Shown here piece after piece: positions 10,039 through 43,113 of a stretch of 43,113 nucleotides of DNA. This stretch comes from a virus: positions 1 through 43,113 of IMG/VR virus record IMGVR_UViG_3300036774_000031; one strand, written 5' to 3'. The first letter of the stretch is position 1. Each line of letters starts with the position of its first letter. The notes beneath the pieces were generated by a model. It was given only the letters and a program-made list of their open reading frames with translations. It did no database searches and had not been told where the DNA came from. Made by a program: the position numbers and the translations under genes.

Positions 10039-10542
10039 TGGGATCGACGATCCTCAATGCAGCCGATATCCCCCTGAACTTCAAACAGGGGACTATTCCA
10101 GACGTTGGCGGCGCACTGAAGGATTGGTTCCAGGCGATGACGTTCACGCAGGTTCAAAAGCAGACGGTCGGCTTCCAGGTGCTCGAGATCGGCGTCGACA
10201 CGAATTTTTGGGGCGTGATCCAGCCGCTCAAACCACAAGCCTTGGCGATCAAGCCAGAGGGCCAGCGGTCGTGGACTTGGCTGCAACTTCATGCCGATCC
10301 ATCCTTGACACTTTTAACCGATGAAGTCGTGACCTATAATGGCGTGCAAACCCGCGTCATGGCACGTCGAGATTATACAATTTATGGATATGTCGAATAC
10401 GAACTTGTCCAAGATTGGACAGATTCGGGTCCGTCGACCTCGCCAGCGATTTACGACGGCGGAAATGCCTATACAATGGACTGGGAAATCAACCTCGACG
10501 GCGGCAATGCGTTCGTGACCGGAAGCCAGGTTGATGGAGGAA

Positions 10543-10559
<17 letters not shown>
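10038..10559 (+). CDS. Head-tail joining / neck protein (putative)
   Basis: 173 aa, GTG start overlapping the previous stop. Assignment is by position and a loose resemblance to head-tail joining proteins only. Confidence 0.4.
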
Positions 10560-14133
<3,574 letters not shown>

Positions 14134-15973: not shown

Positions 15974-17110
15974 ATGACTCAACAACTGTCACTTACAAAC
16001 GTCATCAACATCTCAGTGTCGCAGACGCCAGTCGGTGTCAGCGCATTCAACACCAGTAACCTCGCGCTTTTTACGGGCGAGACGCCGGGGATGGGGTTCG
16101 GTTCCCTCGGCTATAAGATCTATCTAGATCCAACGGATGTTGCCACGGACTTCGGTTCCGGCAGCGTCACGTATGCCATGGCCTTAGGCGTGTTCTCGCA
16201 GCAGCCTAATATCCTGGCCGGCGGCGGATATCTGGTCATTATCCCATATCTATCTATGGAAACCATGGCGGCGGCCATTACGCGGACCTCGACTCTTGTC
16301 CAGTATTTCGGTTGCATGAGCGCCGCAATCGAATCCCAAGCCGATATGCTGGCGGCAGCGGCCGTCATCCAAGCCAATCCGATTCTAATAGGATTCTTTG
16401 TCCAACGGACGACAGGAAGCATCGCGCCAGGTGGATCGCTTGATCTTCTTCGAAGCGGTTCATTCTATCAATCGCGCGGTCTGTTCTATGGTGCGGCGGA
16501 CGATACGACGGCGCTTGTCATGCAAGCCAGCTATGCCGGTCGCGCTCTGTCGGTTAATTTCAGCGGATCGAACACGACGATCACGATGCACCTCAAGACC
16601 CTTGCCGGCGTCCAGCCAGATCCGACCATCACGCAGACCTATCTCACCGAAGCCATCACGGCCGGCGCCGACACTTATGTCAGTTTGCAGGGCGCCCCAT
16701 CGGTGTTCTGTGTTGGCGCAAACAAGTTCTTCGATCAGGTCTATAACCTCGGTTGGGCTATCGGGGCGTTGCAAGTCGCTGGATTCAATTATCTTGCGCA
16801 GGCGTCGACGAAAGTTCCTCAGACCGAGAACGGCATGAGCGGTCTCAAAGGTGCATATCGTACTGTCTGCGAACAGGGCGTATCGAATCAATACTTGGCG
16901 CCAGGGACATGGACAAGCCCAGTAACATTCGGGAACCAAAAAGACATGTTATCTAATATTTCTCAGAATGGTTATTACATTTACTCAGCCCCAATAGCAT
17001 CACAGTTGGCAGTCGATCGCGCCGCACGCAAGGCGCCCCTGGTGCAGATCGCGCTTAAAGAAGCCGGCGCAATCCAGTCGAGTTCCGTAATCGTCAACGT
17101 AAATCCATAA
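15974..17110 (+). CDS. Tail sheath protein (DUF3383-like)
   Basis: 378 aa with a GGAGGA SD. Directly precedes tube, chaperone and tape measure. The baseplate W/J/I genes indicate a contractile tail. Confidence 0.6.
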   Translation: MTQQLSLTNVINISVSQTPVGVSAFNTSNLALFTGETPGMGFGSLGYKIYLDPTDVATDFGSGSVTYAMALGVFSQQPNILAGGGYLVIIPYLSMETMAAAITRTSTLVQYFGCMSAAIESQADMLAAAAVIQANPILIGFFVQRTTGSIAPGGSLDLLRSGSFYQSRGLFYGAADDTTALVMQASYAGRALSVNFSGSNTTITMHLKTLAGVQPDPTITQTYLTEAITAGADTYVSLQGAPSVFCVGANKFFDQVYNLGWAIGALQVAGFNYLAQASTKVPQTENGMSGLKGAYRTVCEQGVSNQYLAPGTWTSPVTFGNQKDMLSNISQNGYYIYSAPIASQLAVDRAARKAPLVQIALKEAGAIQSSSVIVNVNP

Positions 17111-17134
17111 CGAATATTTTTAAGGAGGCGCTAC

Positions 17135-17596
17135 ATGCCAGCAGTTTCAATGTCAGGAAACGATACGATCTTAATAAATAATCACACTATGGTTGATTTG
17201 GCGGAGGGCAATGTCGTGGATTTGACCTTCCCGACTGATATCGCCAACGTCAAAACAGGAAAGAATGGCAATTCGATTTACGGATTAAATGAAACAGGTA
17301 AACAATGCGAAGTAAAGATCAGGGTTCTTCGGGGATCTGATGATGATAAATTTCTGAATAATCTTCTTCGTCAGCAACAATCTGGTTTCCAGAGTTTCCC
17401 GCTATTGATTGGAAGTTTCATAAAATATATCGGCGATGGTACGGGGTCATTCACGACCGATACTTATGTCATGTCTGGTGGGGTGTTTACAAAAATACCC
17501 GAGGCGAAAAGCAACGTTGAGGGTGATACGGAACAGTCTGTTTGTATTTATACAATGAAATTCAGCAACGCGCCTCGTTCAATAGGAAATGGATAA
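17135..17596 (+). CDS. Tail tube protein (DUF3277-like)
   Basis: 153 aa with an AAGGAGG SD, between the sheath and the chaperone. Confidence 0.6.
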   Translation: MPAVSMSGNDTILINNHTMVDLAEGNVVDLTFPTDIANVKTGKNGNSIYGLNETGKQCEVKIRVLRGSDDDKFLNNLLRQQQSGFQSFPLLIGSFIKYIGDGTGSFTTDTYVMSGGVFTKIPEAKSNVEGDTEQSVCIYTMKFSNAPRSIGNG

Positions 17597-17996
17597 AATG
17601 AGGGAAGTAAATCTGCCGAGTGGCGCAGTTTTGATGGTAATGCCAAGCCCGTTCGGCACAGCGAAAACGCTTTATCAGGCGATTTTAAAAGAAGTTCAGG
17701 GCATCGCAATCTCATCGACTATGGAGATGGCGACTCTTTACAAAGATCTTTTTTGCAAAGGGTTTACATCTCCGGCTGTCGAGGCCGCTCTATGGGAATG
17801 CATGAAACGGTGTACGTGCGATCAGGGTAAGGGTCAATTAAAGATCACGCCCGATACATTTGAACCCGTGGAGCGCCGCGATGACTTCATGAAGGTGTGC
17901 GTCGAGGTTGCGAAAGAGAACGTAATGCCTTTTATGAAAAGCCTCTATGCCGAGTTCGGGTCCCTTTTCGGAGCGACAGAAAATCCCCCGACGTAG
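17589..17996 (+). CDS. Tail assembly chaperone (G-like)
   Basis: 135 aa between tube and tape measure, with an overlapping -1 frame ORF at its 3' end. Confidence 0.65.
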   Translation: MDKMREVNLPSGAVLMVMPSPFGTAKTLYQAILKEVQGIAISSTMEMATLYKDLFCKGFTSPAVEAALWECMKRCTCDQGKGQLKITPDTFEPVERRDDFMKVCVEVAKENVMPFMKSLYAEFGSLFGATENPPT

Positions 17997-18166
17997 AGGC
18001 TACGGACGACGATCTTCTGGTCTATTTCAAGCTATGTAAAGCTGGATATGCATCCTCAGTTACCGAAGCCGCAGAATTCGACGCACGAACCGTATTGCAA
18101 GCACTCCATTACGAAAACTTCTGCAGTGACTATGATCATACATTCATGATGATCAACAAAGGATAG
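17897..18166 (+). CDS. -1 frame extension ORF of the tail chaperone (GT-like frameshift product)
   Basis: Open in the -1 frame relative to 17589-17996 and overlapping its last 100 nt. It ends 5 nt before the tape-measure start. This is the conserved G/GT arrangement. Confidence 0.55.
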   Translation: MRRGCERERNAFYEKPLCRVRVPFRSDRKSPDVEATDDDLLVYFKLCKAGYASSVTEAAEFDARTVLQALHYENFCSDYDHTFMMINKG

Positions 18167-18170
18167 AACC

Positions 18171-19970
18171 GTGCAAGTCGGTGAATTGTTCATAAATCTT
18201 GGAGTCAAGGGACAGGAAAAAACCATTGCTGCCCTAACTGGCATCCGCGGTGGGTTGAACGACACAACATCGAATGCGCTGGCCGCGAAGGCCGCGATTG
18301 TCGGCCTGCTTTATGCTGTCGGAAAATTGATATCCGATACTGGACAAGTTGGCACTTCCTTAACCAATGCCAATGCCACACTCGGAATGTCAACAAGACT
18401 GCTTCAGCAATACCAATATGCTGCACGTCAGGCCGGAGCATCTAATGAGGAGATGACCGGATCATTCAAGTCTCTGTCTCAGATTGCAACAGATGTCCTT
18501 CTAAAAGGAAATGCGCCGGAAGGTCTTGCCAGGATCGCGCAGGTCACCAAAATGCAAACCGGCGAGATGTTAAGACTGCTGAAGAGTGCCAGCGAAGGCG
18601 ATGTTATCCCATTGTTCAAGATTCTCGATCAATATGCCCGTCTAGAAACTAATATTGGTTATCGCAACAAAAATTTAAAGGGCATGGGAATCAGCGAGGG
18701 GATTGCGGCGGGTTCTATTAGAAATAAATTTACGCCTGAGATTTTGGAAAAGGCGCCGTTGTACGGCGACAAAGAAGTTAAATCACTAGATAACGCCCAT
18801 ATCGGATGGAAGAATCTTGCTAATACGATGGAAATGGCATTCGGGCATTTCAACGCCAAACATGGTGCAGAGATTGTCGGTGAGCTTAACAAAATAATTC
18901 CTAAAGTTATCGATCTTGCTGAGGCATTTGACAAACTAGCAACAAACCTGGGGGTGTTTGAAAAATTCGGAAAAATTATAGAGGGCTGGACGTATATTCT
19001 TCAGGGTCTATTATATATCGTCAATGAAATGAATAAGTCTGGTGAAGGTGCTCCGGGAGAAAAAAACAAACCCGGAGATACGCGTCCAGGGACCCCAAAA
19101 AGCAGGAATGCCGCGAAAGACAAAATTCTTTCCGAAGGGATTTCATCATTTCTAGGGCAGATGTTTTATGATGCCCCTGCGCCTCCGGAAAAATCGCCGT
19201 CTGGACAACGGGCAGGTACTCCACAAGAAATGCTAGGACGTTCATCTGGTGGGACTGTCGAACAATTCATGGCGGGCGGAGCTGTATACTTGGCTGGAGG
19301 CGGCGAGGCGGGGGTTGCTAAGGGTTTCCGCAATAAACCAAGTCCAGATGATGATACGACATGGAGTACCGAAGAAATAAATGCGGCCATCGCTAAAGGA
19401 AAACAATGGCAAGTAGTAGATAAAACCCAATATGGATTTCCAAGTTCATATTTATCTCCAAGTAATAAACTTTATCACCTAGGAAAAGGTGATGGGAATT
19501 TCCATTTAGTGAAACAATCGGATGATGATTACGATACGATCACTCAATCCATGCTCAAATATTATAATAAGATTCATGGACTCGCGACTGGCGGAATGGT
19601 CTATCTCGCTGGCGGCGGAAATCCATTTAAGCCACGCGGCACTGATACGATACCAGCAATGTTGACGCCCGGAGAATATGTTCTAAATACAAAAATGGTT
19701 GGCCAGATTGGTTCTGGTCCATTAGAACATTGGCGCCGCGGCGGTAAACCACCTGCGCATTTTGCTGCTGGTGGTATGACTGATTTCGCGAGCGCGATCA
19801 GTCCTACTCATCCGGCGGGGATCGGCGGCGGCGGATCTCAGAATATCAACGTAAACCAAAATCTAAATTTTCAACACGAAGGTAAGGACGCGCAGAAAAC
19901 CGGCGAATCTGTCAAACAGGCTATCCAACAGGCATATAGGCAGATGCCAGGATTAGTCCAAGGAGCGTAA
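18171..19970 (+). CDS. Tape measure protein
   Basis: 599 aa, helical N-half. Two GG.VYLAGGG motifs and a DTIPAMLTPGEYVLN motif common in tape measure proteins. Follows the chaperone pair. Confidence 0.85.
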   Translation: MQVGELFINLGVKGQEKTIAALTGIRGGLNDTTSNALAAKAAIVGLLYAVGKLISDTGQVGTSLTNANATLGMSTRLLQQYQYAARQAGASNEEMTGSFKSLSQIATDVLLKGNAPEGLARIAQVTKMQTGEMLRLLKSASEGDVIPLFKILDQYARLETNIGYRNKNLKGMGISEGIAAGSIRNKFTPEILEKAPLYGDKEVKSLDNAHIGWKNLANTMEMAFGHFNAKHGAEIVGELNKIIPKVIDLAEAFDKLATNLGVFEKFGKIIEGWTYILQGLLYIVNEMNKSGEGAPGEKNKPGDTRPGTPKSRNAAKDKILSEGISSFLGQMFYDAPAPPEKSPSGQRAGTPQEMLGRSSGGTVEQFMAGGAVYLAGGGEAGVAKGFRNKPSPDDDTTWSTEEINAAIAKGKQWQVVDKTQYGFPSSYLSPSNKLYHLGKGDGNFHLVKQSDDDYDTITQSMLKYYNKIHGLATGGMVYLAGGGNPFKPRGTDTIPAMLTPGEYVLNTKMVGQIGSGPLEHWRRGGKPPAHFAAGGMTDFASAISPTHPAGIGGGGSQNINVNQNLNFQHEGKDAQKTGESVKQAIQQAYRQMPGLVQGA

Positions 19971-19973
19971 GAT

Positions 19974-20840
19974 ATGCCAAATCTATCTGGACTATCTGCC
20001 GCAACAACTTCGGCGACCGCGTTATCGAATCTCATTCTTGTTTCACCTCAGGATGTTGTCGGTTATCAACCGCAAAATCCCCCATTCTCAGATGGTACAC
20101 CGTCGACAGCTCCGCTTAGGCCGGCGCTGCTGTTCCATTATGAGGGTGAACAGACGGCGATGCTCGAAAGCGATATCACAGACCATTACGTTGAGGACAA
20201 TACGGCGATCCAGGATCAGATTGCGTTGCGTCCCGAGACGATCACGACCCACGGATTCATCGGCGAGCTCAATGATGTGCCGACTGGCATTCTAAAATTA
20301 TTGAAGGCCGCTGCCGATAAACTCTTGATTATCGGTGCCTACACGCCAGAACTGGCCGTTGCCGCACAGATTGCCTATGCCGAAGCGACACTTGTTTATG
20401 CGGCGGCATCTAGTTTGGCAGATAGTGCGATATCGGCGTGGGATACATTGCAGAATCAGGGCGGCAACAGCGTCATTGGATCTGGAGGTTTGACGCCGCA
20501 GAAGGGTCAAAACAAGCAACAGACGATGTTCCAGCAGTTCTATGGATACTGGCGCGACCGTCGACTGTTCACGGTTCAAACTCCGTGGGCTGTATTTCAG
20601 GATATGGCGATCAAATCTCTGCGCGCGATCCAGGATGCCGAGACGCGGGTGATAACGGATTTCGAGGTCACATTCAAGATAATTAGGAATGCATCGACTA
20701 TAACATCCTCAACACTTCCTCCTGGATATCAAACAATAGGAAATGCACAGGCATCTCCTTTACAGGATCTCGGTACGTCCGCCTTAAACGCGTCTGGCGG
20801 AATTGGCGAAAGTATCTCAAGCATGGTGGCAATAGAATGA
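19974..20840 (+). CDS. Tail/baseplate protein following the tape measure (XkdP / Mu gp43 position)
   Basis: 288 aa. The motif SDITDHYVEDNTAIQDQIALRPETITTHGFIGE resembles post-tape-measure tail proteins. Otherwise positional. Confidence 0.45.
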   Translation: MPNLSGLSAATTSATALSNLILVSPQDVVGYQPQNPPFSDGTPSTAPLRPALLFHYEGEQTAMLESDITDHYVEDNTAIQDQIALRPETITTHGFIGELNDVPTGILKLLKAAADKLLIIGAYTPELAVAAQIAYAEATLVYAAASSLADSAISAWDTLQNQGGNSVIGSGGLTPQKGQNKQQTMFQQFYGYWRDRRLFTVQTPWAVFQDMAIKSLRAIQDAETRVITDFEVTFKIIRNASTITSSTLPPGYQTIGNAQASPLQDLGTSALNASGGIGESISSMVAIE

Positions 20841-21184
20841 TGTTTCTAATCCAACACATATCTAGTAGCGCATTTCAAACACAGCGGTTTTCCTTGCCGG
20901 ATGGTTCTTCATTTTCAATGACATTATCTTTTCGACCCCGCCAGATCGGATGGTTTATCAATTCATTGACATATGGATCGTTCATTCTCCAGGGACTTCG
21001 TATCACTAACAGCCCGAATATGCTTCATCAGTTCAAAAATCAGATCCCATTCGGACTTGGATGCTTTTCGACGCAGAACAGAGAACCGACTTTCCAACAG
21101 GATTTCTCATCTGGTGCATCTAAACTCTATGTCTTGAGTCAATCTGAAATTGTTCAATATTGGGAATATTTGCAGCGTGGATAA
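20837..21184 (+). CDS. Hypothetical baseplate-module protein (115 aa)
   Basis: ATGA-coupled to the upstream gene. AT-rich. No family recognised. Confidence 0.5.
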   Translation: MMFLIQHISSSAFQTQRFSLPDGSSFSMTLSFRPRQIGWFINSLTYGSFILQGLRITNSPNMLHQFKNQIPFGLGCFSTQNREPTFQQDFSSGASKLYVLSQSEIVQYWEYLQRG

Positions 21185-22034
21185 ATTTGGACGAAATTAT
21201 ATTTTAACGGTCGGTGACGAGGATAAAAACCTTGTGACGATTGAGCCGCCTTTTACAATTGAATTTGACATCACGCGTAATACTCTGACATCGGCAAATG
21301 TATGCGAAATAAATATCTACAATCTCAGTTTGGTAAAACGAAATAAACTGAAATTCAATATTTCAAATATGGGAGAATTTAGGCCAGTTGTTCTTTTGGC
21401 TGGATATGGCGATCAGCTCGTTACCATATTCAATGGAAATATTTCTCGCGCCGCATCTTTTCGCCAAGGCGTTAACATGATTACTCAGGTTTCTTGCTTC
21501 GATGGCGGGTTCGCCTTTGTGAATGGAGAAAGCAATCTTCAATTTCCCGCAGGAACTCCGACTAAAGTCGTTATTCAATCTTTGATTGATACACTTCCAC
21601 ATGTCGATAATAAAGGGGTGATCGGAACATATATCGATAAAATTCCACGCAGTGCTTCATATGCGGGAAATACGATCAAGAATTTGAAAGAAATTACCGG
21701 AGGAGGATTCTTCATTGATAACGGCAAGGCCAATGCGCTTAGAACAAATGAGTATATCCAGCAAGATCTGACGCCAAAAATTATAACATCTGATTCTGGC
21801 CTTCTTGCCACGCCGGTATTAGAACAAACCATAATGCATTTCGACATGGTATTTGAACCGCAGCTTGCACCAGGCAATGCCATCATCATGAAAAGCAGCA
21901 CGGTAAATAACTTCAATGGGCTTTACAAAATTACAGGTGTAAAACATAGAGGCATGATCTCTGGTGCTGTTTGCGGGACATTAATTACAACTGGTCAATT
22001 CTTTTTTGACAAATTATTGACGGGTGTTCATTAA
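21177..22034 (+). CDS. Baseplate hub protein (XkdQ / gp27-like)
   Basis: ~285 aa. GTG at 21177 overlaps the previous stop (GTGGATAA). Position between the tape-measure-proximal genes and the spike. The ORF track starts at 21150. Confidence 0.5.
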   Translation: MDKFGRNYILTVGDEDKNLVTIEPPFTIEFDITRNTLTSANVCEINIYNLSLVKRNKLKFNISNMGEFRPVVLLAGYGDQLVTIFNGNISRAASFRQGVNMITQVSCFDGGFAFVNGESNLQFPAGTPTKVVIQSLIDTLPHVDNKGVIGTYIDKIPRSASYAGNTIKNLKEITGGGFFIDNGKANALRTNEYIQQDLTPKIITSDSGLLATPVLEQTIMHFDMVFEPQLAPGNAIIMKSSTVNNFNGLYKITGVKHRGMISGAVCGTLITTGQFFFDKLLTGVH

Positions 22035-27471: not shown

Positions 27472-27834
27472 ATGTTCAACGGTTGGATTTTGACCATGGT
27501 TATTTCTTTCGTGATCAAGCAAGTTTCGCATTTTGGCGGCGCGACCGACTGGGTCAAGGTCAAGGCTGATTTCGATGCCCGCATCAAGTCCATCGTGCAC
27601 CTTGGTTTCTTCAGCGACGAGCTGTCAAACCTTGCGAACCTGATGATCGACGGCGTGGCGGCGGCGCTACAAGACACGGCCGATATGAGTACGATCGTCG
27701 GATTGGCGGCGGCGCAGAATTGGTCCGGTGCCTTGGCGGCACTCAAATCCATGGTGTTGGCACAGTGGCAGCCAACATCACCCGAGGGACAGGCGGTTAT
27801 CGCCGAACTTCAAAAATTATCAATCCCGTCTTAA
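27472..27834 (+). CDS. N-terminally membrane-anchored protein (possible holin or lysis accessory)
   Basis: AAGGGGA SD. WILTMVISFVIKQV is a hydrophobic segment. First gene of the lysis-region cluster. The function is inference only. Confidence 0.4.
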   Translation: MFNGWILTMVISFVIKQVSHFGGATDWVKVKADFDARIKSIVHLGFFSDELSNLANLMIDGVAAALQDTADMSTIVGLAAAQNWSGALAALKSMVLAQWQPTSPEGQAVIAELQKLSIPS

Positions 27835-27848
27835 TCCTCCGTGGGGCG

Positions 27849-27889
27849 GGCACCTCGGCAGCGATGTCGGGGTGCCATTTTTATTGAAA
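27849..27889 (+). terminator. Weak candidate intrinsic terminator
   Basis: GGCACC (27849-54) pairs with GGTGCC (27871-76) across a 16-nt loop, followed by ATTTTTATT. The stem is short. Confidence 0.3.
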
Positions 27890-27902
27890 GGGGTTCCAGA
27901 TC

Positions 27903-29747
27903 ATGCCCGACAAAAAGCACCTTAAGAAAGAACTTTTTGCACTATTCTGGATCGCCTTCATCCTTGGCGCCATGTTGGCCTTGGGGGTGTTCCTAGTCCA
28001 GTCGTGCGGTTCGCCGAAGTCCGGCGGTGCTCCGGCCGCTCCGGCACCGACATGCGACGGTGGGTCGCCTATCGCGACGATCCGCCAATTGCCATGTCCG
28101 CCGAATCAAACGGGCGCTATCACGCAGATATGCACCGAACAGAATTGGCAGCAGTCGGCCAATACGTGCGCCGCGGTGCCGCCGCCCCCACCCGTTTGTC
28201 CGAAAACGGTGTTCACGGACATTGCGCCGATCCTGTCGACGCATTGTGCCAAATGCCATGCCGGGATCGATACTTATGCCGGCGCCAGCCAGGGAACTCG
28301 TCCTGCGGAGATCTCGAGGCGGATCGGTCTGCCTGTTGCGAACAATGACCATATGCCGGTTGGAACCGAAAATCCATTGGCGCCAGCCGACGGCCAATTG
28401 ATTCAAAAATGGGTGAGCGATGGCACGCTTAAAGATTGCACGGGGGCGACTCCGCTGCCAACGCATATCACGGTTCCGTATCTCGAGGATGCCATCGAGG
28501 CCGATTTACTCTTGCAGGCAGTTAGTGACCGACCGTTCATTGAATACCTATCAACAGCTCACGCCTTCAATGCTGGCGATAAAGGGCCTTGGCGCGAGGC
28601 GATTGATAAGGGCATCAACTCGCTGAATGCCACGAAGGATGACATTTTCCACGTTGAACCGATTGACTTGGCGCAGACTATATGGCGTCTTGACGTGCGG
28701 TCTATTGGCTTGAATCAGGCCGATCTGGCAGCCATCGATGCCGCGGACGGGATCAACCTCATCTCGAATACGACGAAAGGTCTGATCATCCGCGCTCTGT
28801 CCGGCAAACGAAAGCCGTGGTATCCAGCCGATACGTTCTTAGATATCGCCTATCGGAACAGCCAGATCTATTATCGGCTGCTTAGAATTCCCGCGACCTT
28901 TGTGCAATTTCTGAACTCGATCGGCGTCAACCAAGTCAGGTCCTTGGCGCAGCTTGACAGCCAGTTCATTGGCGGTGCGAGCTCGCCAATTGCCGAACAG
29001 AAGAACCGTTTGATCTGGCGTTTTACCGAGGACCGCACGCAGCAGGCATATTACTGGCAGACAGGTGACATCAATGGCCAGCCATCGGCCGCCAAGAACC
29101 TGTTTCAAAATCCTTTGCTTAATGGCACTGGCGGGGTCGAGATCTATCAGTTTGACGCCAGCGAGATGATCTACTCGCTGCCCAACGGTCTGCAGGGATA
29201 TGCCATCTTCAGCGGCGCCGGCAATCGTCTGGATGCCGCCCCACCCGATGTCGTCCGTGATACGCGCAGTCCCATTACATCAGTGATCTCTTTATTCTCA
29301 TGTTCAGGATGCCATCAGCAAGGTTTGATCCCGATGATCGACGAGGTCCGCGTCCACGTCATCGCCAATGCAGCGCAGTTCAATGCCAACGATGTTGAGC
29401 TCGTCAAGAAATTATACCTTCAGGACAATAGTCAAATATTCAAACGCGATAACCGCATCTTTGGATCGGCGCTGGCCAAGATCAATGTTGATCCAAACAA
29501 GCCAGATCCCCAAGCCATCATCAGCGACAGGTATCTTCTTAACTGGGACTTGAACAAGGTCGCCAGCTTCCTGCTGTTGACGCCCGCCGAGGGTCGGGCA
29601 TGCATCAACCAATCTGCAACCGGCAAACGCGACATGGGTCAATTGCTGCTGTCTGATACGGCCGTCGTGACCTTTGCGACGTTTCAATCCGTGCTGCCTG
29701 CCTTAATTGCCGACTGTCGTCTGTTTCAGGATCCTGTTGGCCAATAA
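27903..29747 (+). CDS. Secreted/lipid-anchored protein with two CXXCH haem-binding motifs (Planctomycete-type cytochrome c-like domain plus a large C-terminal domain)
   Basis: K-rich n-region, a 22-aa hydrophobic core, then VQSC. FTDIAPILSTHCAKCHAG (CAKCH at 28245-28259) ... NNDHMP ... LIQKWVSDG matches my memory of PSCyt1-type domains. A second CSGCH lies at 29301-29315. Confidence 0.55.
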   Translation: MPDKKHLKKELFALFWIAFILGAMLALGVFLVQSCGSPKSGGAPAAPAPTCDGGSPIATIRQLPCPPNQTGAITQICTEQNWQQSANTCAAVPPPPPVCPKTVFTDIAPILSTHCAKCHAGIDTYAGASQGTRPAEISRRIGLPVANNDHMPVGTENPLAPADGQLIQKWVSDGTLKDCTGATPLPTHITVPYLEDAIEADLLLQAVSDRPFIEYLSTAHAFNAGDKGPWREAIDKGINSLNATKDDIFHVEPIDLAQTIWRLDVRSIGLNQADLAAIDAADGINLISNTTKGLIIRALSGKRKPWYPADTFLDIAYRNSQIYYRLLRIPATFVQFLNSIGVNQVRSLAQLDSQFIGGASSPIAEQKNRLIWRFTEDRTQQAYYWQTGDINGQPSAAKNLFQNPLLNGTGGVEIYQFDASEMIYSLPNGLQGYAIFSGAGNRLDAAPPDVVRDTRSPITSVISLFSCSGCHQQGLIPMIDEVRVHVIANAAQFNANDVELVKKLYLQDNSQIFKRDNRIFGSALAKINVDPNKPDPQAIISDRYLLNWDLNKVASFLLLTPAEGRACINQSATGKRDMGQLLLSDTAVVTFATFQSVLPALIADCRLFQDPVGQ

Positions 29748-29771: not shown

Positions 29772-30245
29772 ATGGCGCCGACGTTCATTCGCGACGGGGA
29801 CATCACTCACCTTTATCCGCCATTTACACAGGCAGTGCGCGATGCCCTAATGACGCTGAGCGCCACAGGATTCGACATCTTTGTGTTCGAGGGTCTCAGG
29901 TCCTTCGATCAGCAGGCATTGCGGTATGCCCAAGGCCGGACGACGCCAGGATCCATCATCACGCGCGCCAGACCGGGATATTCGTGGCATCAATATGGCT
30001 GCGCCGTTGACCTGGTATTTGGCGGCGACGGCAAATGGTCGTGGTCTGGGAATTATGACGGGGTTGAGCGCATCATGCGCGTCAAAGGATTCGAGTCGCT
30101 GTCGTTCGAGCGCCCGCATTTTCAGATGACGTTCGGCCTGGACATTGACGAGGCGTTCACGCTCAATGCATCTGGCGGTCTGCCGGCCGTCTGGGGTCGT
30201 CTGGATCAACTACGGCGAGGACCTAAGGCGACGCCGTTGACCTGA
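29772..30245 (+). CDS. Endolysin, peptidase M15 (VanY / L-Ala-D-Glu peptidase type)
   Basis: GLRSFDQQ...YSWHQYGCAVDL...ERPHFQM matches the zinc-ligand pattern of M15 peptidases. AAAGGAG SD. Confidence 0.8.
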   Translation: MAPTFIRDGDITHLYPPFTQAVRDALMTLSATGFDIFVFEGLRSFDQQALRYAQGRTTPGSIITRARPGYSWHQYGCAVDLVFGGDGKWSWSGNYDGVERIMRVKGFESLSFERPHFQMTFGLDIDEAFTLNASGGLPAVWGRLDQLRRGPKATPLT

Positions 30246-31182: not shown

Positions 31183-31577
31183 AGCTCTATCTCCGAAAGT
31201 TTCGCCTGTAGCGAGGCGAGGGCTTTATTCAGTGGCTCAAAATGTTGTGCAAACATTCCTTTCAGCCAACTCTGATGGTCAAGGTCGCCATGCAACGACG
31301 CTAGAAGCAGTGGTATCTCGACATGGGACGCCTCTTTCGCCACGGCTACAAGCTCGTCCGCACAGTTGCGGAGAAGGGCGATGCCATCCATATTAGGACT
31401 GCCTTTCGCCGCTGGCACAAGTATTCCCTTTTCTTCATGTCGCGTTTCTGCATTGGCTAGGATGATGTTGCGCCCACCGTGGTCGGCAACAAGAACATCA
31501 TTGCCGCCGAAATTGCGCCATCTCCATGGTTCCGGATACATCCCCGCAATCGCCGCTGAGAGATCGTCTAAGGTCAT
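31179..31577 (-). CDS. Hypothetical protein (132 aa), loosely Ead/Ea22-like
   Basis: PWRW...GNDVLVAD.GGR.I...NMDGIALLRNCADELVAV resembles a recurring phage early-protein motif. Weak. Confidence 0.5.
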   Translation of the reverse strand: MTLDDLSAAIAGMYPEPWRWRNFGGNDVLVADHGGRNIILANAETRHEEKGILVPAAKGSPNMDGIALLRNCADELVAVAKEASHVEIPLLLASLHGDLDHQSWLKGMFAQHFEPLNKALASLQAKLSEIEL

Positions 31578-32185
31578 TCGCCTATCTCCTCGATCATTGC
31601 TATGAGGCGCTTGATTTGAGCATCCCCGGCAGCATCCCAGGCAACATTCCTGGCAGCAGCACTGGCAGCAGCCCTGGCAGCAGCACTGGCAGCAGCCCTG
31701 GCAGCAGCCCCGGCAGCATCCCAGGCAACATTCCTGGCAGCATCACCGGCAGCATTCCAGGCAGCATTCCAGGCAGCATTCCAGGCAGCATCCCAGGCAG
31801 CCTCCCTGGCAGCATCACCGGCAGCATTCCAGGCAGCAGCCCAGGCAGCCTCCCTGGCAGCAGCCAACTCCTCTGCCGTCGCTTCGCCATTCGCAAAACG
31901 CTCTGCCACATCACAAGCGGCAACGCTTCTAGGATCAGCATCTTTGACTAATTTCAATGCCTCGCGCGCGCACCATACCGCGAATAGCCTGTTAATTTTG
32001 TCGCTCAAAAATCTTGAAACAACCCACAGTTTGTCTTGGGGCGAAGGGCCATCTAGTTTCAGAATGTCTACGACTGTGCCGGTCCAACCCTCGCTGATGA
32101 ATTTCGCTGGATCATAACAAGGCGACAAGGCGCGAATGTCAGCAATGGTGCGGGTTTTTAGCTTCGCTAGGTCGTCTAAGGTCAT
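31574..32185 (-). CDS. AAW(D/N)AA tetrapeptide-repeat protein (Imm5-like helical N-domain plus ~80-aa repeat array)
   Basis: 203 aa. The N-domain ...RLFAVWCAREALKLVKDADPRSVAACDVAERFANGEATAEEL... is followed by AAWAAAWNAAGDAAREAAWDAAWNAAWNAAWNAAGDAARNVAWDAAGAAARAAASAAARAAASAAARNVAWDAAGDA. Confidence 0.65.
   Translation of the reverse strand: MTLDDLAKLKTRTIADIRALSPCYDPAKFISEGWTGTVVDILKLDGPSPQDKLWVVSRFLSDKINRLFAVWCAREALKLVKDADPRSVAACDVAERFANGEATAEELAAAREAAWAAAWNAAGDAAREAAWDAAWNAAWNAAWNAAGDAARNVAWDAAGAAARAAASAAARAAASAAARNVAWDAAGDAQIKRLIAMIEEIGE
31624..31866. repeat. 12-bp-period imperfect tandem repeat (GGCAGCATYCCA-type) inside the AAW-repeat gene
   Basis: Read directly. All three frames on both strands stay open across it. 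Confidence 0.85.
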
Positions 32186-32779: not shown

Positions 32780-33000
32780 GTTGTCCCTTTCTTATATTCT
32801 GAAATGTAAAACTGATCGCCGCATTGTGCGCAGATGATAGCTGTGCCGGCCGGAAACGGCGCATGATGATGCGTGTACTGCACTTGGCAATACGGGCACC
32901 ATGCCAGCCAATATTCGAACTGTCGGACGATCTGATAAATCCGCCGCTCCGGTGGTTTGAAGTCCGGCCCGACGGATTGGATTGGGCGCTTGCGTTTCAT
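32776..33000 (-). CDS. Small zinc-ribbon protein (74 aa)
   Basis: CPYC...(21 aa)...CAQC. Basic N-terminus MKRKRP. Confidence 0.55.
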   Translation of the reverse strand: MKRKRPIQSVGPDFKPPERRIYQIVRQFEYWLAWCPYCQVQYTHHHAPFPAGTAIICAQCGDQFYISEYKKGTT

Positions 33001-33254
33001 TGTTGGCGCAGTCGCTCCATCACATCATCATATGGTTTCTGTCTGATCACATCCTCGTTCTGTTGCCTGAGTTCGATTTCTGGCAGGCATAGATTGACGA
33101 CTTGTTGATTATAGCGTGCAGCCAAATGGATCAATTCATTCGACCACGTCAAATGATCGTCGTTTGACATATCGTCCGCCAGCCGATCAGCAATGGCGAT
33201 AAGCGATGCCCTGATTTTGGCTTGGGTCGTGATGGATATCATTTTATTTTCCAT
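32997..33254 (-). CDS. Hypothetical helical protein (85 aa from ATG 33254, or 81 aa from 33242)
   Basis: MENKMISITTQAKIRASLIAIADRLADD... looks coding. The upstream VTVPVT part of the track ORF is an open alternative frame of the hexanucleotide repeat. Confidence 0.5.
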   Translation of the reverse strand: MENKMISITTQAKIRASLIAIADRLADDMSNDDHLTWSNELIHLAARYNQQVVNLCLPEIELRQQNEDVIRQKPYDDVMERLRQQ

Positions 33255-33273
33255 TGAGTAAATTTTTTTGGTG

Positions 33274-33618
33274 TCAACCGTAACCGGAACCGTCACCGTA
33301 ACCGTAACCGGAACCGTCACCGTAACCGTAACCGGAACCGTCACCGTAACCGGAACCGTCACCGTAACCGTCACCGTAACCGTTACCGTCACCGGAACCG
33401 GAACCGGAACCGTTACCGTTACCGTCACCGTCACCGGAACCGTTACCGTCACCGGAACCGGAACCGGAACCGTTACCGTTACCGTCACCGTAACCGTAAC
33501 CGGAACCGTCACCGTCACCGTAACCGGAACCGTCACCGTAACCGGAACCGGAACCGTAACCGTAACCGGAACCGTAACCGTAACCGGAACCGTAACCGTC
33601 AATCGTTATTGTTGCCAT
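33274..33618 (-). CDS. (Gly-X)n low-complexity protein, 114 aa: MATITID followed by 107 residues of strictly alternating G-[Y/S/D/N]
   Basis: ATG 33618 overlaps the upstream gene's end by 13 nt. The frame stops exactly at the end of the repeat (TGA 33274-76). 17 Tyr lie in the two flanks; the centre is N/S/D-only. Confidence 0.5.
   Translation of the reverse strand: MATITIDGYGSGYGYGSGYGYGSGSGYGDGSGYGDGDGSGYGYGDGNGNGSGSGSGDGNGSGDGDGNGNGSGSGSGDGNGYGDGYGDGSGYGDGSGYGYGDGSGYGYGDGSGYG
33277..33600. repeat. ~54 tandem hexanucleotide units (GGAACC/GTAACC/GTCACC/GTTACC on the plus strand)
   Basis: Read directly. Open in three listed ORF-track frames. Confidence 0.9.
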
Positions 33619-37225: not shown

Positions 37226-38016
37226 TCAATAAATGGGACAAGTTTAATCCCCGCAAGGACCTCAAAACCTCATCATGGTTTCGACTTGAGAACAACTTTT
37301 TGACGCATCCATCCCTTTGGGACCTCTCGAGTGATGGCAAAATGGTGTGGATCGGTCTGCTATGTGATGCATCGCGTCGACAAAGTTCGTGCATCGAAGC
37401 AAATTCTAAATTGTTGGCAGCCTTGCTTAAAACAACAGCATCTGTTGTCGAAGATGCATTTAGTGCCCTTCAAGATGCCGATATGATTGAAATACACACG
37501 TCACGTCCACGTAACGTCCGCGTCACGTCCGCGTCACGTCCACGTAACGCACGCGTAACACGCTGGCGCCCTACGGACATAACGGACGAACATAACGGAC
37601 GAGACGAACGAACGAACAAGACTTCCGCCGATCCCGGCGTAGGTTTCGTGGATCCAGGTAATGATCTAATCTTGGCGACCGCTTGGCTGGAGTATGCCAA
37701 GGCCGAGATGCCGTGGCGGACTGACGACAAGTCTTGGAGCCCCCAGGTGTTCGCCGCCGATCTAGCGCAGGTCCAAAAAAAGTGTGGCCTCACCGACGAG
37801 GGGATGATGCGCGTTCTCGAATTCATTCGCGCTGACGATTTCTGGCACGACAAGGCGTGCAATCCCAAAGGACTTCTCGGCAAATCAAAAAACGGTCAAC
37901 GCAAAATCGACAACATTTTAGTGCGAATGAAATCCGATTCGAAATCAAGTTCGGCATCAACGGCGGAAGCAATTCAGCGGTGGGCCGATTCACGTTCAAC
38001 CCAAGGAGATCCGTAA
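37213..38016 (+). CDS. Putative replication initiator / replisome organiser carrying internal iterons
   Basis: N-terminal W.KF...WFRLENNFL...LS.DGKMVWIGLL resembles phage replication-organiser N-domains. An iteron array lies inside the linker region. Confidence 0.5.
   Translation: MWIIINKWDKFNPRKDLKTSSWFRLENNFLTHPSLWDLSSDGKMVWIGLLCDASRRQSSCIEANSKLLAALLKTTASVVEDAFSALQDADMIEIHTSRPRNVRVTSASRPRNARVTRWRPTDITDEHNGRDERTNKTSADPGVGFVDPGNDLILATAWLEYAKAEMPWRTDDKSWSPQVFAADLAQVQKKCGLTDEGMMRVLEFIRADDFWHDKACNPKGLLGKSKNGQRKIDNILVRMKSDSKSSSASTAEAIQRWADSRSTQGDP
37497..37562. repeat. Six tandem 11-bp iterons (consensus CRCGTMACGYM), putative origin of replication
   Basis: The units are CACGTCACGTC, CACGTAACGTC, CGCGTCACGTC, CGCGTCACGTC, CACGTAACGCA and CGCGTAACACG. 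They are followed by 2 x ACATAACGGACGA (37576-37601) and an (ACGAA)3 tract. Confidence 0.6.
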
Positions 38017-42563: not shown

Positions 42564-43113
42564 ATGAATCACATCATATCGATCATGATCGTTTTGAACG
42601 CCGGTATCCTCGCTTGCGGCACGCCAGCGCAACAGAAGGCCCGTGAGAAGGCTGTGCAAAATGCCTACAATAGTCCGGCCAATGGCGGAACGGGCACATC
42701 GACGGGCACTAGCGCCGCGACCTCAACCCAGACGGCCGCCGCGACCTCAACCCAGACGGCCGCCGCGACCTCAACCCAGACGGCCGCCGCGACCTCAACC
42801 CAGACGGCCGCCACGACCGCGCCAGCACCGTCAGGACCGACATCCTGCACCGCCACAGCATCGACGCCAGCAACCGGTATGGGAACGACCTGGCAGTATG
42901 ATCCGACACTCAGGACGTGGGCAGCAGCCAAGGCAGCGGCACCGACCGGATGGCACCTCGCGACCCGCGCTGAGGTCCTCAACCTGTTCGATACTAAGGC
43001 ACTCGCCAAGCAGGTGTTCACGATCTCCTTTGTCTGGACTGCCACGCCGATTGACGCTGCAGATGCTTGGATCGTCGACATCATGCAGGGAAGCCTGGCG
43101 CCTGAGGCCGCGG
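42564..43113 (+). CDS. Lipoprotein with AAATSTQT tandem repeats and a DUF1566 (Lcl C-terminal)-like domain; runs off the window end and finishes at 161
   Basis: AAGGAG SD. The signal peptide MNHIISIMIVLNAGILAC has a lipobox. C-terminal GWHLATRAEVLNLF...FVWTATP...AWIVDIMQG resembles DUF1566. There is no stop before 43113. Confidence 0.65.
   Translation, partial: MNHIISIMIVLNAGILACGTPAQQKAREKAVQNAYNSPANGGTGTSTGTSAATSTQTAAATSTQTAAATSTQTAAATSTQTAATTAPAPSGPTSCTATASTPATGMGTTWQYDPTLRTWAAAKAAAPTGWHLATRAEVLNLFDTKALAKQVFTISFVWTATPIDAADAWIVDIMQGSLAPEAA
42714..42806. repeat. Perfect 24-bp tandem repeat x ~4 (GCCGCCGCGACCTCAACCCAGACG)
   Basis: Read directly. Encodes AAATSTQT repeats in the lipoprotein linker. 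Confidence 0.9.
42991..43113. repeat. Terminal direct repeat, right copy (identical to 1-123)
   Basis: Read directly. Confidence 0.95.

Follow-up and report, generated by a model that had tools for sequence, protein, structure and literature searches.

A phage gene between lysis genes for a predicted dihaem c-type cytochrome lipoprotein with a C-terminal haem domain of no described family

The phage DNA considered here (the window, i.e., the whole stretch of 43,113 nucleotides that was analysed) carries an open reading frame at 27903..29747 on the plus strand, with an ATG start and the stop codon included, which encodes 614 aa. We hold with moderate confidence that the product is a c-type cytochrome of the periplasm, exported by Sec, anchored by lipid and carrying two covalently bound haems, and that its gene closes the late operon as moron cargo with a role as a redox auxiliary. 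The original prediction on this frame holds as an observation, and all sequence features that it listed for the protein were found in the translation. The gene and its parts are as follows.

27903..29747, plus strand: predicted gene of the dihaem c-type cytochrome lipoprotein, 614 aa
27903..28007, plus strand: signal peptide and lipobox, residues 1-35, putative lipidation at Cys35 (PS51257-type rule and Cys35 conservation)
28053..28169, plus strand: small beta module with four Cys and a Trp (C51, C65, C77, W82, C89), phage-clade-specific
28179..28193, plus strand: PPPPP linker, residues 93-97, read from the translation
28197..28439, plus strand: FoxE/PSCyt1-like class I cytochrome c domain, residues 99-179, from profile matches
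28245-28259, plus strand: first haem motif CAKCH, residues 115-119
28353-28358, plus strand: Met151-Pro152 (HMP is residues 150-152)
28461..29744, plus strand: predicted C-terminal haem-c domain, residues 187-614, about 430 aa, no family or fold match
29301..29315, plus strand: second haem motif CSGCH, residues 467-471, present in 169/169 homologues

The N-terminus reads MPDKKHLKKE, followed by a hydrophobic stretch of 22 aa (LFALFWIAFILGAMLALGVFLV) and then QSC. With K4, K5, K8 and K9 and the sequence ...GVFLVQSC35, it conforms to the PS51257-type lipobox rule, which asks for a positive n-region, an uncharged h-region and [LIVMFWSTAG]2-[LIVMFYSTAGCQ]-[AGS]-C whose Cys lies no further in than residue 35. 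The strict pattern fits just 26 of 166 relatives; Cys35 itself is kept in 97 of the 98 sequences covering that column, which agrees with the lipoprotein predicted originally. Cysteines occur at positions 35, 51, 65, 77, 89, 99, 115, 118, 179, 467, 470, 567 and 605. The small Cys/Trp module, modelled as three strands with a pLDDT of about 90 (84 for the AF2 model of the protein as a whole), is kept in the close clade and missing from distant cellular relatives. C99 and C179, which bracket the cytochrome c domain, may form a disulfide.

Two CXXCH motifs are not expected in such a protein by chance: of 200,000 shuffles that kept the composition of the protein, only 2 contained them (P about 1e-5), while the same shuffling gives a P of 0.004 for at least one. 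Conservation was counted in an alignment of 170 relatives, the total for each column being the sequences that cover it. C115, C118 and H119 are present in 135/135 and C467, C470 and H471 in 169/169 homologues, and the location of CSGCH given originally is exact. Met151 is kept in 142 of 144 relatives; Met151-Pro152 lines up with the QcrC MP and the FoxE RMP, and the region is helical in the model. Haem 1 is probably ligated by His119 together with Met151, as far as the alignment indicates; the assignment of Met151 to this haem is tentative because the two domains of FoxE exchange their Met ligands. In the C-terminal domain, Y323 (168/168), R369 (169/170), D389 (170/170) and E421 (169/170) are conserved and G474 is also among the invariant residues, with no further conserved His or Met in the domain across the same alignment. 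Since no distal His or Met is conserved for haem 2, it is probably a reactive or a sensing haem. The gene is under purifying selection (pN 0.20; pS is saturated at 0.78).

The similarity to cytochrome c emerges at the level of the family. The full 614-aa query matched no Pfam family at E<=1 and nothing in NCBIfam or PHROGs, and phmmer found nothing among PDB sequences; the isolated cytochrome domain, searched at E<=10, matched only PccH (13.4 bits vs a cut-off of 24.4, E 0.08). Close relatives score 14-18 bits with PF13442 (Cytochrome_CBB3) against its gathering threshold of 27. Among 26 relatives, 15 matched PF13442 and five matched PF07635 (PSCyt1), and a Singulisphaera homologue exceeds the PSCyt1 gathering cut-off (26.9 bits vs 22). 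The resemblance to PSCyt1 named in the original prediction is therefore borne out in relatives, and not for the query itself. The family profile (A1) matched the PDB entries of FoxE (5mab, E 2.3e-9) and QcrC (5e-5), as well as c6, CcoP and c551; among the matches listed, 60/60 are c-type cytochromes or proteins containing cytochrome c. In addition, an HMM of the small cytochromes encoded beside the gene in sister phages (see below) matches the N-terminal cytochrome domain at 2.8e-6. On these profiles, residues 99-179 are a class I cytochrome c domain related to FoxE and PSCyt1. We believe that the interpretation offered originally is supported, in particular, by cytochrome c similarity at the family level and by the conservation of both haem motifs.

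The best solved relative of this domain is FoxE (PDB 5MAB), the bihaem c-type cytochrome with which Rhodobacter ferrooxidans SW2 oxidises Fe(II). Both haem domains of FoxE align with the family profile over CxxCH ... RMPpG ... WI..GA. FoxE is described as periplasmic, with motifs of the His/Met type, a stabilising disulfide and Met ligands swapped between its domains (PMC10654088); the C99-C179 bracket in the window protein may be a counterpart of this disulfide. However, FoxE is about 290 aa long, has two such domains and works with FoxY and FoxZ as partners, whereas the window protein has one such domain, a predicted lipid anchor and an additional C-terminal haem domain of 430 aa. We do not class it as a FoxE-type Fe(II) oxidase: its FoxE-like domain is single, and no foxY-like or foxZ-like genes are found among the annotated ORFs of the window. 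The order of motifs, in which CxxCH comes first, MP next and an amphipathic helix at the C-terminus, is shared with PSCyt1 and Cytochrome_CBB3; PSCyt1 is as a rule followed by PSCyt2 and PSD1 domains, neither of which is present here (no PSCyt2 or PSD family matched the 614-aa protein).

The C-terminal domain of about 430 aa had no match in Pfam, NCBIfam, PHROGs or the PDB sequences. Structure prediction with Foldseek, named originally as a check, did not place it either: with a pLDDT of about 90 in this region, the domain has no fold match in the PDB or BFVD, the best E for the 614-aa model against both being 0.14 (noise from GAIN and Hsp70). In the model, the second haem motif sits in a mixed alpha/beta domain, which is not of the class I type. 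As judged from the searches and the model, this predicted haem-c domain falls outside the described families and folds. The bacterial dihaem cytochrome c peroxidases (CCP) and MauG resemble the proposed arrangement in logic, since there an electron-transfer haem feeds a reactive haem and a small cytochrome c is the donor; here, a putative His/Met relay haem is accompanied by a second haem lacking a fixed distal His or Met, and sister phages encode a dedicated small monohaem cytochrome c next door. The window protein nevertheless has no sequence or fold similarity to them. Cytochrome c peroxidase and DUF1111, named originally as families to compare, are not recovered: the Pfam scans of the query and of the 26 relatives gave neither PF03150 (CCP/MauG) nor PF06537 (DUF1111), and no CCP/MauG is among the PDB sequence or fold matches.

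The window is a complete-looking tailed-phage contig that encodes TerL, TerS, a portal, a major head protein, a tape measure, a baseplate and a tail fibre, together with RecT, a Gam-like protein and a ParB-methyltransferase. No lysogeny genes are among the ten early-region ORFs examined, and the window has no tRNAs. The best TerL matches are to Rhizobium phages (56%) and Methanoculleus viruses (52%), from which the host cannot be inferred. The haem gene has the following surroundings.

27472..27834, plus strand: 120-aa protein with one N-terminal hydrophobic segment, homologues at loci L003 and L090
27849..27886, plus strand: terminator-like hairpin (12-bp stem, 8 G-C pairs, 4-nt loop), then ATTTTTATTG
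27887..27893, plus strand: Shine-Dalgarno-like AAAGGGG, 9 nt before the ATG of the haem gene
29772..30245, plus strand: M15/VanY-type endolysin, 157 aa (PF02557 2e-6; phrog_6523 3e-20)

The 120-aa protein has no Pfam, NCBIfam or PHROGs match. Its homologues are a 116-aa protein encoded beside an M15_3 endolysin (L003) and a 124-aa protein encoded just downstream of a haem-gene homologue (L090); judging from this company, its gene probably belongs to the lysis cassette and would encode a holin-like or i-spanin-like product. The hairpin (dG -27.4 kcal/mol, z -2.9, equalled by 1 of 200 shuffles) lies in the 68-nt gap between this gene and the haem gene, and a promoter scan between the hairpin and the haem gene detected none. 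The endolysin begins 24 nt downstream of the haem gene and has its own ribosome-binding site, AAAGGAG; the spacing suggests that the two genes are probably co-transcribed, in which case the infected cell would probably make the haem protein and the endolysin at the same time. A moron slot within the lysis cassette, as originally described, is supported by the 120-aa homologue directly beside the M15 endolysin in L003 and by the presence of the haem gene in unrelated backbones. GC and GC3 of the haem gene match those of the phage core genes, so the gene is compositionally at home; we considered a recent foreign acquisition and dropped it for this reason.

Considering this position, it is tempting to propose a lysis function, namely an o-spanin-like outer-membrane lipoprotein that disrupts the outer membrane together with the upstream 120-aa membrane protein. 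The gene does lie between a small membrane protein gene and the endolysin, its product has a lipobox, the cassette yielded no other candidate for a spanin, and the relatives in L003, L004-L006, L082 and L102 are also near endolysin genes. An o-spanin is a small outer-membrane lipoprotein of tens to about 130 aa, its gene being paired with, embedded in or overlapping the i-spanin gene. The window protein, at 614 aa and with two haem sites, is unlike any spanin; its gene is separated from the 120-aa gene by the hairpin-containing gap, its homologues also occur in contexts far from lysis genes (L001, L081), and cellular homologues are in the thousands. Closeness to lysis genes is in any case expected for cargo at a module boundary. 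We do not count the protein among the o-spanins and regard a lysis accessory role as very improbable.

The same slot is occupied by lipoprotein morons in lambdoid and T5-like phages, and the protein could be an envelope-remodelling or superinfection-exclusion lipoprotein like Cor, Llp or Bor, which masks or alters a surface receptor and in which the haems would be structural or incidental. Such a role would suit the lipobox, the position of the gene beside tail-fibre and lysis genes and downstream of a terminator-like hairpin, and the disulfide-rich N-terminal module specific to the phage clade, a possible binding domain. The exclusion lipoproteins known to us are small and without cofactors, however, and both the absolute conservation of the haem sites and pocket residues in the 170 sequences and the tight linkage to other cytochromes indicate that redox chemistry is what selection acts on. 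We therefore consider this explanation quite unlikely, and the redox reading remains the preferred one.

The related phage loci support the view of the gene as cargo. In the flanks of eight of them (L001, L003, L082, L083, L090, L094, L100 and L102), only the 120-aa gene is common to the window. The copy in L001, which with L002 is the 73% relative of the window copy, follows a primase gene, and that in L081 lies among DnaJ and methyltransferase genes. Judging by these neighbourhoods, the haem gene moves between unrelated phage backbones as mobile cargo; its place at a module boundary, its occurrence in unrelated backbones and its cellular homologues are those of moron or auxiliary cargo.

Most loci of the phage clade, and nearly all of those in the close clade, have a gene for a small lipoprotein monohaem cytochrome c 0-56 nt downstream of the family gene. 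Genes for a YceI-like protein and a fused cytochrome-porin are also frequent, being found in most close-clade loci. In L004-L006 the family protein lacks a cytochrome c domain of its own and the small cytochrome gene stands alongside. The cytochrome-porin (344-386 aa) has a signal peptide, a single N-terminal CXXCH with the consensus FPExIRHGYxNCTSCHVSPxGGG around it and, in the AF2 model (pLDDT 83), a 16-strand barrel that Foldseek relates to OmpM1, OmpU, OmpF and OprP (8e-10 and probability 1.0 for the last). It is this partner, and not the window gene, that is comparable with Cyc2, with which it shares the signal peptide, the single CXXCH and the modelled 16-strand porin; its length is around or below the 365-aa cut-off. 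The template used for Cyc2 is OprP (2o4v), which the partner barrel matches too (PMC8406198). Nonetheless, the two signatures of Cyc2 (Keffer 2021, PMC8406198), of which AxPxFAR[Q/K][T/Y] precedes CXXCH by five residues and PxL follows it by four, are absent from the partner, and we rejected its membership in Cyc2.

None of these partner genes is found beside the window copy, its 73% relative or L090, and what is said below of an electron conduit is therefore borrowed from the sister phages. The c-type cytochromes depend on host export and maturation machinery. We presume that the 614-aa protein would be exported and lipidated at Cys35, whereupon the cytochrome c maturation system of the host would attach both haems. 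Haem 1 would serve as an electron relay; haem 2, with the invariant Tyr323, Arg369, Asp389 and Glu421, would be the probable reactive centre, catalytic or ligand-binding. Since a small cytochrome c accompanies the protein in most sister phages, frequently along with a cytochrome-porin and a YceI-like protein, it is most likely the periplasmic working part of an electron-transfer module leading from the outer membrane to the periplasm. The window copy, being without partners, would have to use host cytochromes. Candidate substrates or partners include Fe(II), peroxide or another oxidant.

A bolder proposal is that the phage clade carries a self-contained envelope electron conduit composed of the cytochrome-porin in the outer membrane, the YceI-like protein, the small cytochrome c and the dihaem lipoprotein with a new haem-c enzyme fold, the window phage having a minimal one-gene version that uses host parts. 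We put this forward as a tentative possibility. If true, infected cells would exchange electrons with an extracellular or periplasmic substrate, e.g., Fe(II) or an oxidant, which would amount to viral auxiliary metabolism for extracellular electron transfer.

The family has no fewer than 2,354 protein clusters, distributed over Planctomycetota, Verrucomicrobiota, Myxococcota, Bdellovibrionota, Hyphomicrobiaceae and further groups; where the genomic context of relatives was inspected, most of them proved to be cellular. Fusions seen in cellular members involve a Ser/Thr kinase at the N-terminus (three species of Singulisphaera), WD40, DUF4384, ricin lectin or LRR/cohesin/dockerin domains. The genes around them encode Ser/Thr kinases, a histidine kinase, ECF sigma factors, a subtilase and caspase-like proteins in which Peptidase_C14 is combined with Sel1, FGE-sulfatase, WD40 or PDZ domains. 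These are signalling contexts, not respiratory ones, and for this reason a sensor domain fits at least as well as an enzyme. The phage protein may accordingly be thought of as a haem-based periplasmic sensor module or a decoy, a free copy of which titrates or mimics a signal and so blunts a stress, defence or abortive-infection pathway of the host. The fusions and neighbours just listed speak for it, as does haem 2 without a conserved distal His or Met, which is what a ligand-binding haem would look like. The phage clade, however, has no output domain and is operon-linked to the electron-transfer partners, the small cytochrome c and cytochrome-porin being absent from about 70 cellular loci, and no specific host pathway could be tied to the window phage. 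We consider a sensor or decoy unlikely, and continue to prefer a redox auxiliary.

Phages with this gene are sparse in the collections searched. A survey of 50,697 deposited phage records gave only one partial match, and 2.9 million IMG/VR contigs gave only six distant loci; the cytochrome-porin partner, used as a query against IMG/VR, found none. In a scan of GTDB genomes for the close clade, the closest match was only 33% identical, so that neither a prophage copy nor a host came to light. The original statement that haem c proteins are essentially undescribed as phage cargo nonetheless goes too far. A soxD gene of phages, with CxxCHG motifs, is reported from two datasets only and read as auxiliary metabolism (Kieft et al. 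2021, PMC8190135); its product is likewise a c-type cytochrome on phage genomes. SoxD is part of the characterised SoxCD sulfane dehydrogenase, whereas the window protein is a predicted lipoprotein of an uncharacterised family with no sox linkage. The c-type cytochromes of phages are thus rare but precedented: they are very rarely seen on phage genomes, and soxD is the published precedent.

The significance of the observation, as we see it, is that a clade of uncultured phages keeps a predicted dihaem lipoprotein under purifying selection. The function of a widespread unnamed haem-c domain, either an enzyme or an extracytoplasmic sensor of kinase, caspase and ECF-sigma systems, is now testable, as is the question of whether phages manipulate envelope redox chemistry; the phage versions, being compact, stand-alone and operon-defined, are convenient entry points for biochemistry. 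The pairing of cytochrome and porin in the sister phages is an architecture hitherto linked to microbial iron oxidation, and the results suggest that viruses can bring their own envelope electron-transfer hardware.

The haem gene starts with ATG in the ORF listing (27903..29747, + strand) and encodes 614 aa. Its translation bears out all the sequence features described in the original prediction:

N-terminus: Lys-rich n-region
Following it: hydrophobic core of 22 residues, ending in VQSC35
C51, C65, C77, C89 and Trp82: 4-Cys/Trp module
Residues 93-97: proline linker PPPPP
Residues 115-119: haem motif 1, CAKCH
Residues 150-152: HMP
Residues 467-471 (nt 29301-29315, + strand): haem motif 2, CSGCH

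At least two CXXCH motifs occurred in 2 of 200,000 composition-preserving shuffles of the protein (P about 1e-5), and at least one in 0.4% of them. The N-terminus fits the PROSITE PS51257-type lipobox rule, and Cys35 is retained in 97/98 homologues covering the column. The 4-Cys/Trp module, a small three-stranded sheet in the AF2 model (pLDDT about 90), is restricted to the phage clade, i.e., the relatives on phage-like metagenomic contigs that resemble our protein most. C99 and C179 flank the cytochrome domain on either side and may form a disulfide, as in FoxE, where one is present (PMC10654088).

The full protein has no match in Pfam, NCBIfam or PHROGs even at E<=1 and none among PDB sequences; the isolated domain 96-186 matches PccH alone, below threshold. 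Relatives were collected by a word-indexed search (26) and by exhaustive HMMER at E<=1e-3 (2,354 representative clusters, 299 of them at E<=1e-30). Among the first 26, Cytochrome_CBB3 is matched by 15 (best 8e-6) and PSCyt1 by 5 (best 2e-7), and one Singulisphaera homologue exceeds the PSCyt1 gathering score; the proposed resemblance to PSCyt1 thus holds at the family level, while the protein itself is too diverged for the curated threshold. Searched against all PDB sequences, the family profile finds FoxE (5mab) at E 2.3e-9; this is the bihaem Fe(II) oxidase of Rhodobacter ferrooxidans, and both of its haem domains align over CxxCH...RMPpG...WI..GA; QcrC, c6, CcoP, c551 and similar proteins follow. 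All 60 of the 60 listed matches are c-type cytochromes or cytochrome-c-containing proteins, and their alignments to the profile are confined to positions of roughly 40-165, at the N-terminal end, where the cytochrome domain lies.

The 170 retrieved relatives were all aligned; among the sequences covering the column in question, C115, C118 and H119 are conserved in 135/135, M151 in 142/144, P152 in 143/144, and C467, C470 and H471 in 169/169, so that both CXXCH motifs proved invariant among the homologues. Covalent attachment of haem to the protein is what we would expect from such motifs.

The core domain (residues about 187-614) has no match in Pfam (with the query and the 26 relatives), NCBIfam, PHROGs or PDB sequences, profile searches included. 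The AlphaFold2 model built on the family alignment has mean pLDDT 84 and pTM 0.75, with the core domain mostly above 88; Foldseek with this model gave no convincing match (best E 0.14 in PDB and 0.32 in BFVD). The second CXXCH lies in the model on a helix that comes after a sheet of five strands (located between residues 353 and 437). This sheet bears several near-invariant residues, namely R369 (169/170), D389 (170/170) and E421 (169/170); outside it, Y323 (168/168), G474 (165/167) and D480 (165/168) stand out in the domain. Since the alignment shows no conserved His or Met in this domain besides H471, haem 2 apparently does not conform to the usual His/Met or bis-His type of relay haem. It may be five-coordinate, or Tyr or Lys may be a ligand, and we infer that it is a reactive or ligand-binding centre.

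The most informative result on function is provided by the partner genes in the sister phages. Nearly all close-clade loci with enough flank carry, 0-56 nt downstream on the same strand, a gene of ~100-115 aa whose lipoprotein product has a single CxxCH and an MPP motif. These small cytochromes yield an HMM that matches the N-terminal domain of the window protein at E 2.8e-6, which makes the two paralogous domains. At L004-L006 the family protein has 496 aa and lacks its own cytochrome domain, and a small cytochrome gene adjoins it; this split versus fused pattern argues that the cytochrome and core domains would work together. Most loci have two more genes, 5' or 3' of the pair: a YceI-like gene (PF04264; NF002994 4e-7) and a cytochrome-porin (about 344-386 aa), which carries a signal peptide and has its CXXCH at the N-terminal end. 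Modelled by AF2 (pLDDT 83, pTM 0.81), the latter is a long-stranded barrel of 16 strands, for which Foldseek finds OmpM1, OmpU, OmpF and OprP (2o4v; 8e-10, probability 1.0); PF07396 Porin_O_P is matched by one homologue, and the partner is otherwise not in Pfam. It shares the overall architecture of Cyc2, a fused cytochrome-porin iron oxidase (PMC8406198), but lacks the defining AxPxFAR[Q/K][T/Y] and PxL motifs; an assignment to Cyc2 proper was therefore dropped, and the likeness is one of layout only.

In the sister phages the YceI-like protein, the ~360-aa cytochrome-porin, the dihaem lipoprotein and the ~100-aa monohaem lipoprotein cytochrome c form a conserved module of 3-4 genes in two gene orders (L081 3351-7238; L085; L086/L087; L088/L089/L106; L091-L093; L095/L110; L103; L104; L009; L004-L006). 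At about 70 cellular loci with a member of the dihaem family the three partners are absent, as they are from the entire window, its 73%-identical relative L001/L002 and L090. YceI/cytochrome-porin pairs are also found where the dihaem gene is missing, on large cellular contigs, one of which is named Bdellovibrionales. Homologues of the cytochrome-porin number 232 and include some from large cellular contigs; at L166 6429-8137 it forms a pair with YceI, and at L165 7001-8095 it lies in a metal/redox-stress island with multicopper oxidase-cytochrome c, SCO1, P-type ATPase, OsmC, thioredoxin and RND efflux genes.

We presume, with moderate confidence, that the 614-aa protein is an exported dihaem redox auxiliary protein; any particular substrate is considerably less certain. 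The protein would be exported by Sec and lipidated at Cys35, the host maturation system would load the two haems, and haem 1 would pass electrons to or from haem 2, the working centre. In the sister phages electrons would move among the outer-membrane cytochrome-porin, the small lipoprotein cytochrome and the dihaem protein; the solitary copy in the window would have to rely on host partners. Because the cytochrome domain is akin to FoxE and a partner resembles Cyc2, Fe(II) oxidation is a possible chemistry; one relay haem, one open haem and a dedicated small cytochrome donor suggest a peroxidase-like reduction of an oxidant.

The strongest rival is a haem-based sensor or decoy, and it draws on the cellular relatives. 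A GTDB scan (one genome per species) gave 72 loci, whose identity to the query never exceeds 33%. They lie in Planctomycetota (Gemmatales, Pirellulales, Singulisphaera), Akkermansiaceae, Hyphomicrobiaceae/Bauldia, Myxococcota (Sorangium, in multiple copies), Bdellovibrionota, Cellvibrionaceae and Acidobacteriota. Most of the encoded proteins exceed the query in length (700-1,800 aa), and the cytochrome-plus-core module is fused in them to other domains: an N-terminal Ser/Thr kinase in three Singulisphaera species (L025-L027), and elsewhere WD40 propellers, DUF4384, ricin lectin, LRR, cohesin or dockerin. The genes that recur next to them encode Ser/Thr kinases, ECF sigma factors, a histidine kinase, subtilase, and caspase-like Peptidase_C14 proteins carrying Sel1, FGE-sulfatase, WD40 or PDZ domains (further loci with such fusions or neighbours are L012, L016, L023, L040 and L007). 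The cellular context is one of signalling or conflict systems, not respiratory; in such systems the module looks like a haem-c sensor domain that has yet to be described. The cellular relatives accordingly resemble the extracytoplasmic sensors of systems built on kinases, caspases or ECF sigma factors. In the phage clade, by contrast, there is no output domain, and the gene is accompanied by electron-transfer partners.

The 50,697 deposited phage genomes contain one partial match (18% query coverage, 35% identity), in a 595-kb uncultured phage; it lies at LR756511.1 484148-484501 of this huge phage and covers residues 416-526 around the second CXXCH. IMG/VR holds six distant loci of the family. 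Raw metagenomes yield the distinct close clade (about 600-670 aa, 31-73% identity), with the lipobox Cys in all members and the 4-Cys module in most. Its contigs are phage-like by gene content: Sipho_Gp157, tail and collar genes and an M15_3 endolysin at L003; a tape-measure-sized ORF and an SLT gene at L082; HNH and Acb5 at L083; DnaB, helicase, ligase, RtcB and tail fibre genes at L089, L095 and L100. A papain-like Peptidase_C1 gene (L003 5195-5962) lies directly 5' of the dihaem gene there.

The window is a complete-looking tailed-phage contig with TerL (phrog_979, 1e-171), portal, major head protein, tape measure, baseplate wedge, tail fibre, RecT, ParB-methyltransferase, TerS and a Gam-like protein; the ORFs scanned include no integrase or repressor. 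The flanks of the haem gene are as originally described:

27472..27834: upstream, 120-aa protein with one N-terminal hydrophobic segment, no family match
29772..30245: downstream, VanY/M15 endolysin (PF02557 2e-6; phrog_6523 3e-20)

At L003 a homologue of the 120-aa gene directly adjoins the M15_3 endolysin, and in the window the haem gene stands between the two, which is what the predicted insertion into a lysis cassette would look like. A ~120-aa protein recurs near the haem gene or endolysin in three unrelated backbones (window 27472-27834, L003 8553-8903 on the minus strand, L090 5736-6110); it has no family match and could act in lysis as a holin or in the manner of an i-spanin. For the 614-aa protein a spanin-type lysis role is excluded by its size, non-lysis-cassette contexts and cellular distribution. 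An exclusion lipoprotein would fit both the slot and the lipobox, but leaves the invariant haem pockets unexplained.

Related phages do carry the gene, in other settings: the flanks of eight phage-clade loci share with the window just the haem gene, plus the 120-aa gene in two of them, and the 73%-identical copy of L001/L002 follows a DUF5906 primase gene and a GGACT gene. Given such unrelated flanks, the haem gene is mobile cargo. Its GC and GC3 (0.55 and 0.64) match phage core genes, and comparison with the L001 homologue gives pN 0.20 and pS 0.78 (synonymous sites saturated); together these values indicate long residence in phages and purifying selection. The 68-nt gap 5' of the gene contains a strong terminator-like hairpin (12-bp stem, 8 G-C pairs, then ATTTTTATTG; dG -27.4 kcal/mol, z -2.9) and, 3' of it, an AAAGGGG ribosome-binding site, and the endolysin starts 24 nt past the stop codon; by this spacing and the hairpin, the two genes appear to be transcribed as one short unit. 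A sigma-70-like promoter was not detected between the hairpin and the haem gene; the host may use another type of promoter.

Elsewhere in the window, the closest relatives of TerL (422-1762) among deposited phages are those of Rhizobium phages (56%) and then Methanoculleus (archaeal) viruses (52%), an odd spread that gives no host assignment. The tail block at 17001-22000 has GC 0.40-0.47 versus about 0.52-0.58 elsewhere (tape-measure GC3 0.41), which suggests a module of mosaic origin. Repeats are also present:

33276-33599: AACCGT x 54 (6-nt tandem repeat), giving the (PVTVTV)n N-terminal tract of the 201-aa ORF 32997..33602 (-)
31619-31862: 12-nt tandem repeat x 20 in ORF 31574..32185 (-), phrog_18326 (unknown function), with AAWDAAWN-type repeats; the opposite strand reads GSIPGS repeats
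42713-42818: 24 nt x 4.4 copies, 98% identity, close to the contig end
13787-13952: (GCG)11 and 18-24-nt repeats within the 1200-aa ORF 10531..14133
37497-37559: 11-nt repeats, ACGTC-rich, about 5 copies, near a DnaD-like gene; these might be iterons or binding sites

The original prediction called haem c proteins essentially undescribed as phage cargo. This is too strong: SoxD with CxxCHG motifs was reported on phages in two datasets (PMC8190135). In a literature phrase search, phage-, virus- or prophage-encoded cytochrome and "phage cytochrome" were not found, and "viral cytochrome c" occurred in just one paper. Unlike the earlier cases, the present one concerns an uncharacterised family, whose main domain has no Pfam entry or structural relative, and a clade of phage lipoproteins that, in the sister phages, are linked to a cytochrome-porin. 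Haem binding and function are assigned here computationally, for a gene that stands alone in the window. We believe that the dihaem gene belongs among the c-type cytochrome auxiliary genes of phages, a class that is itself already known.
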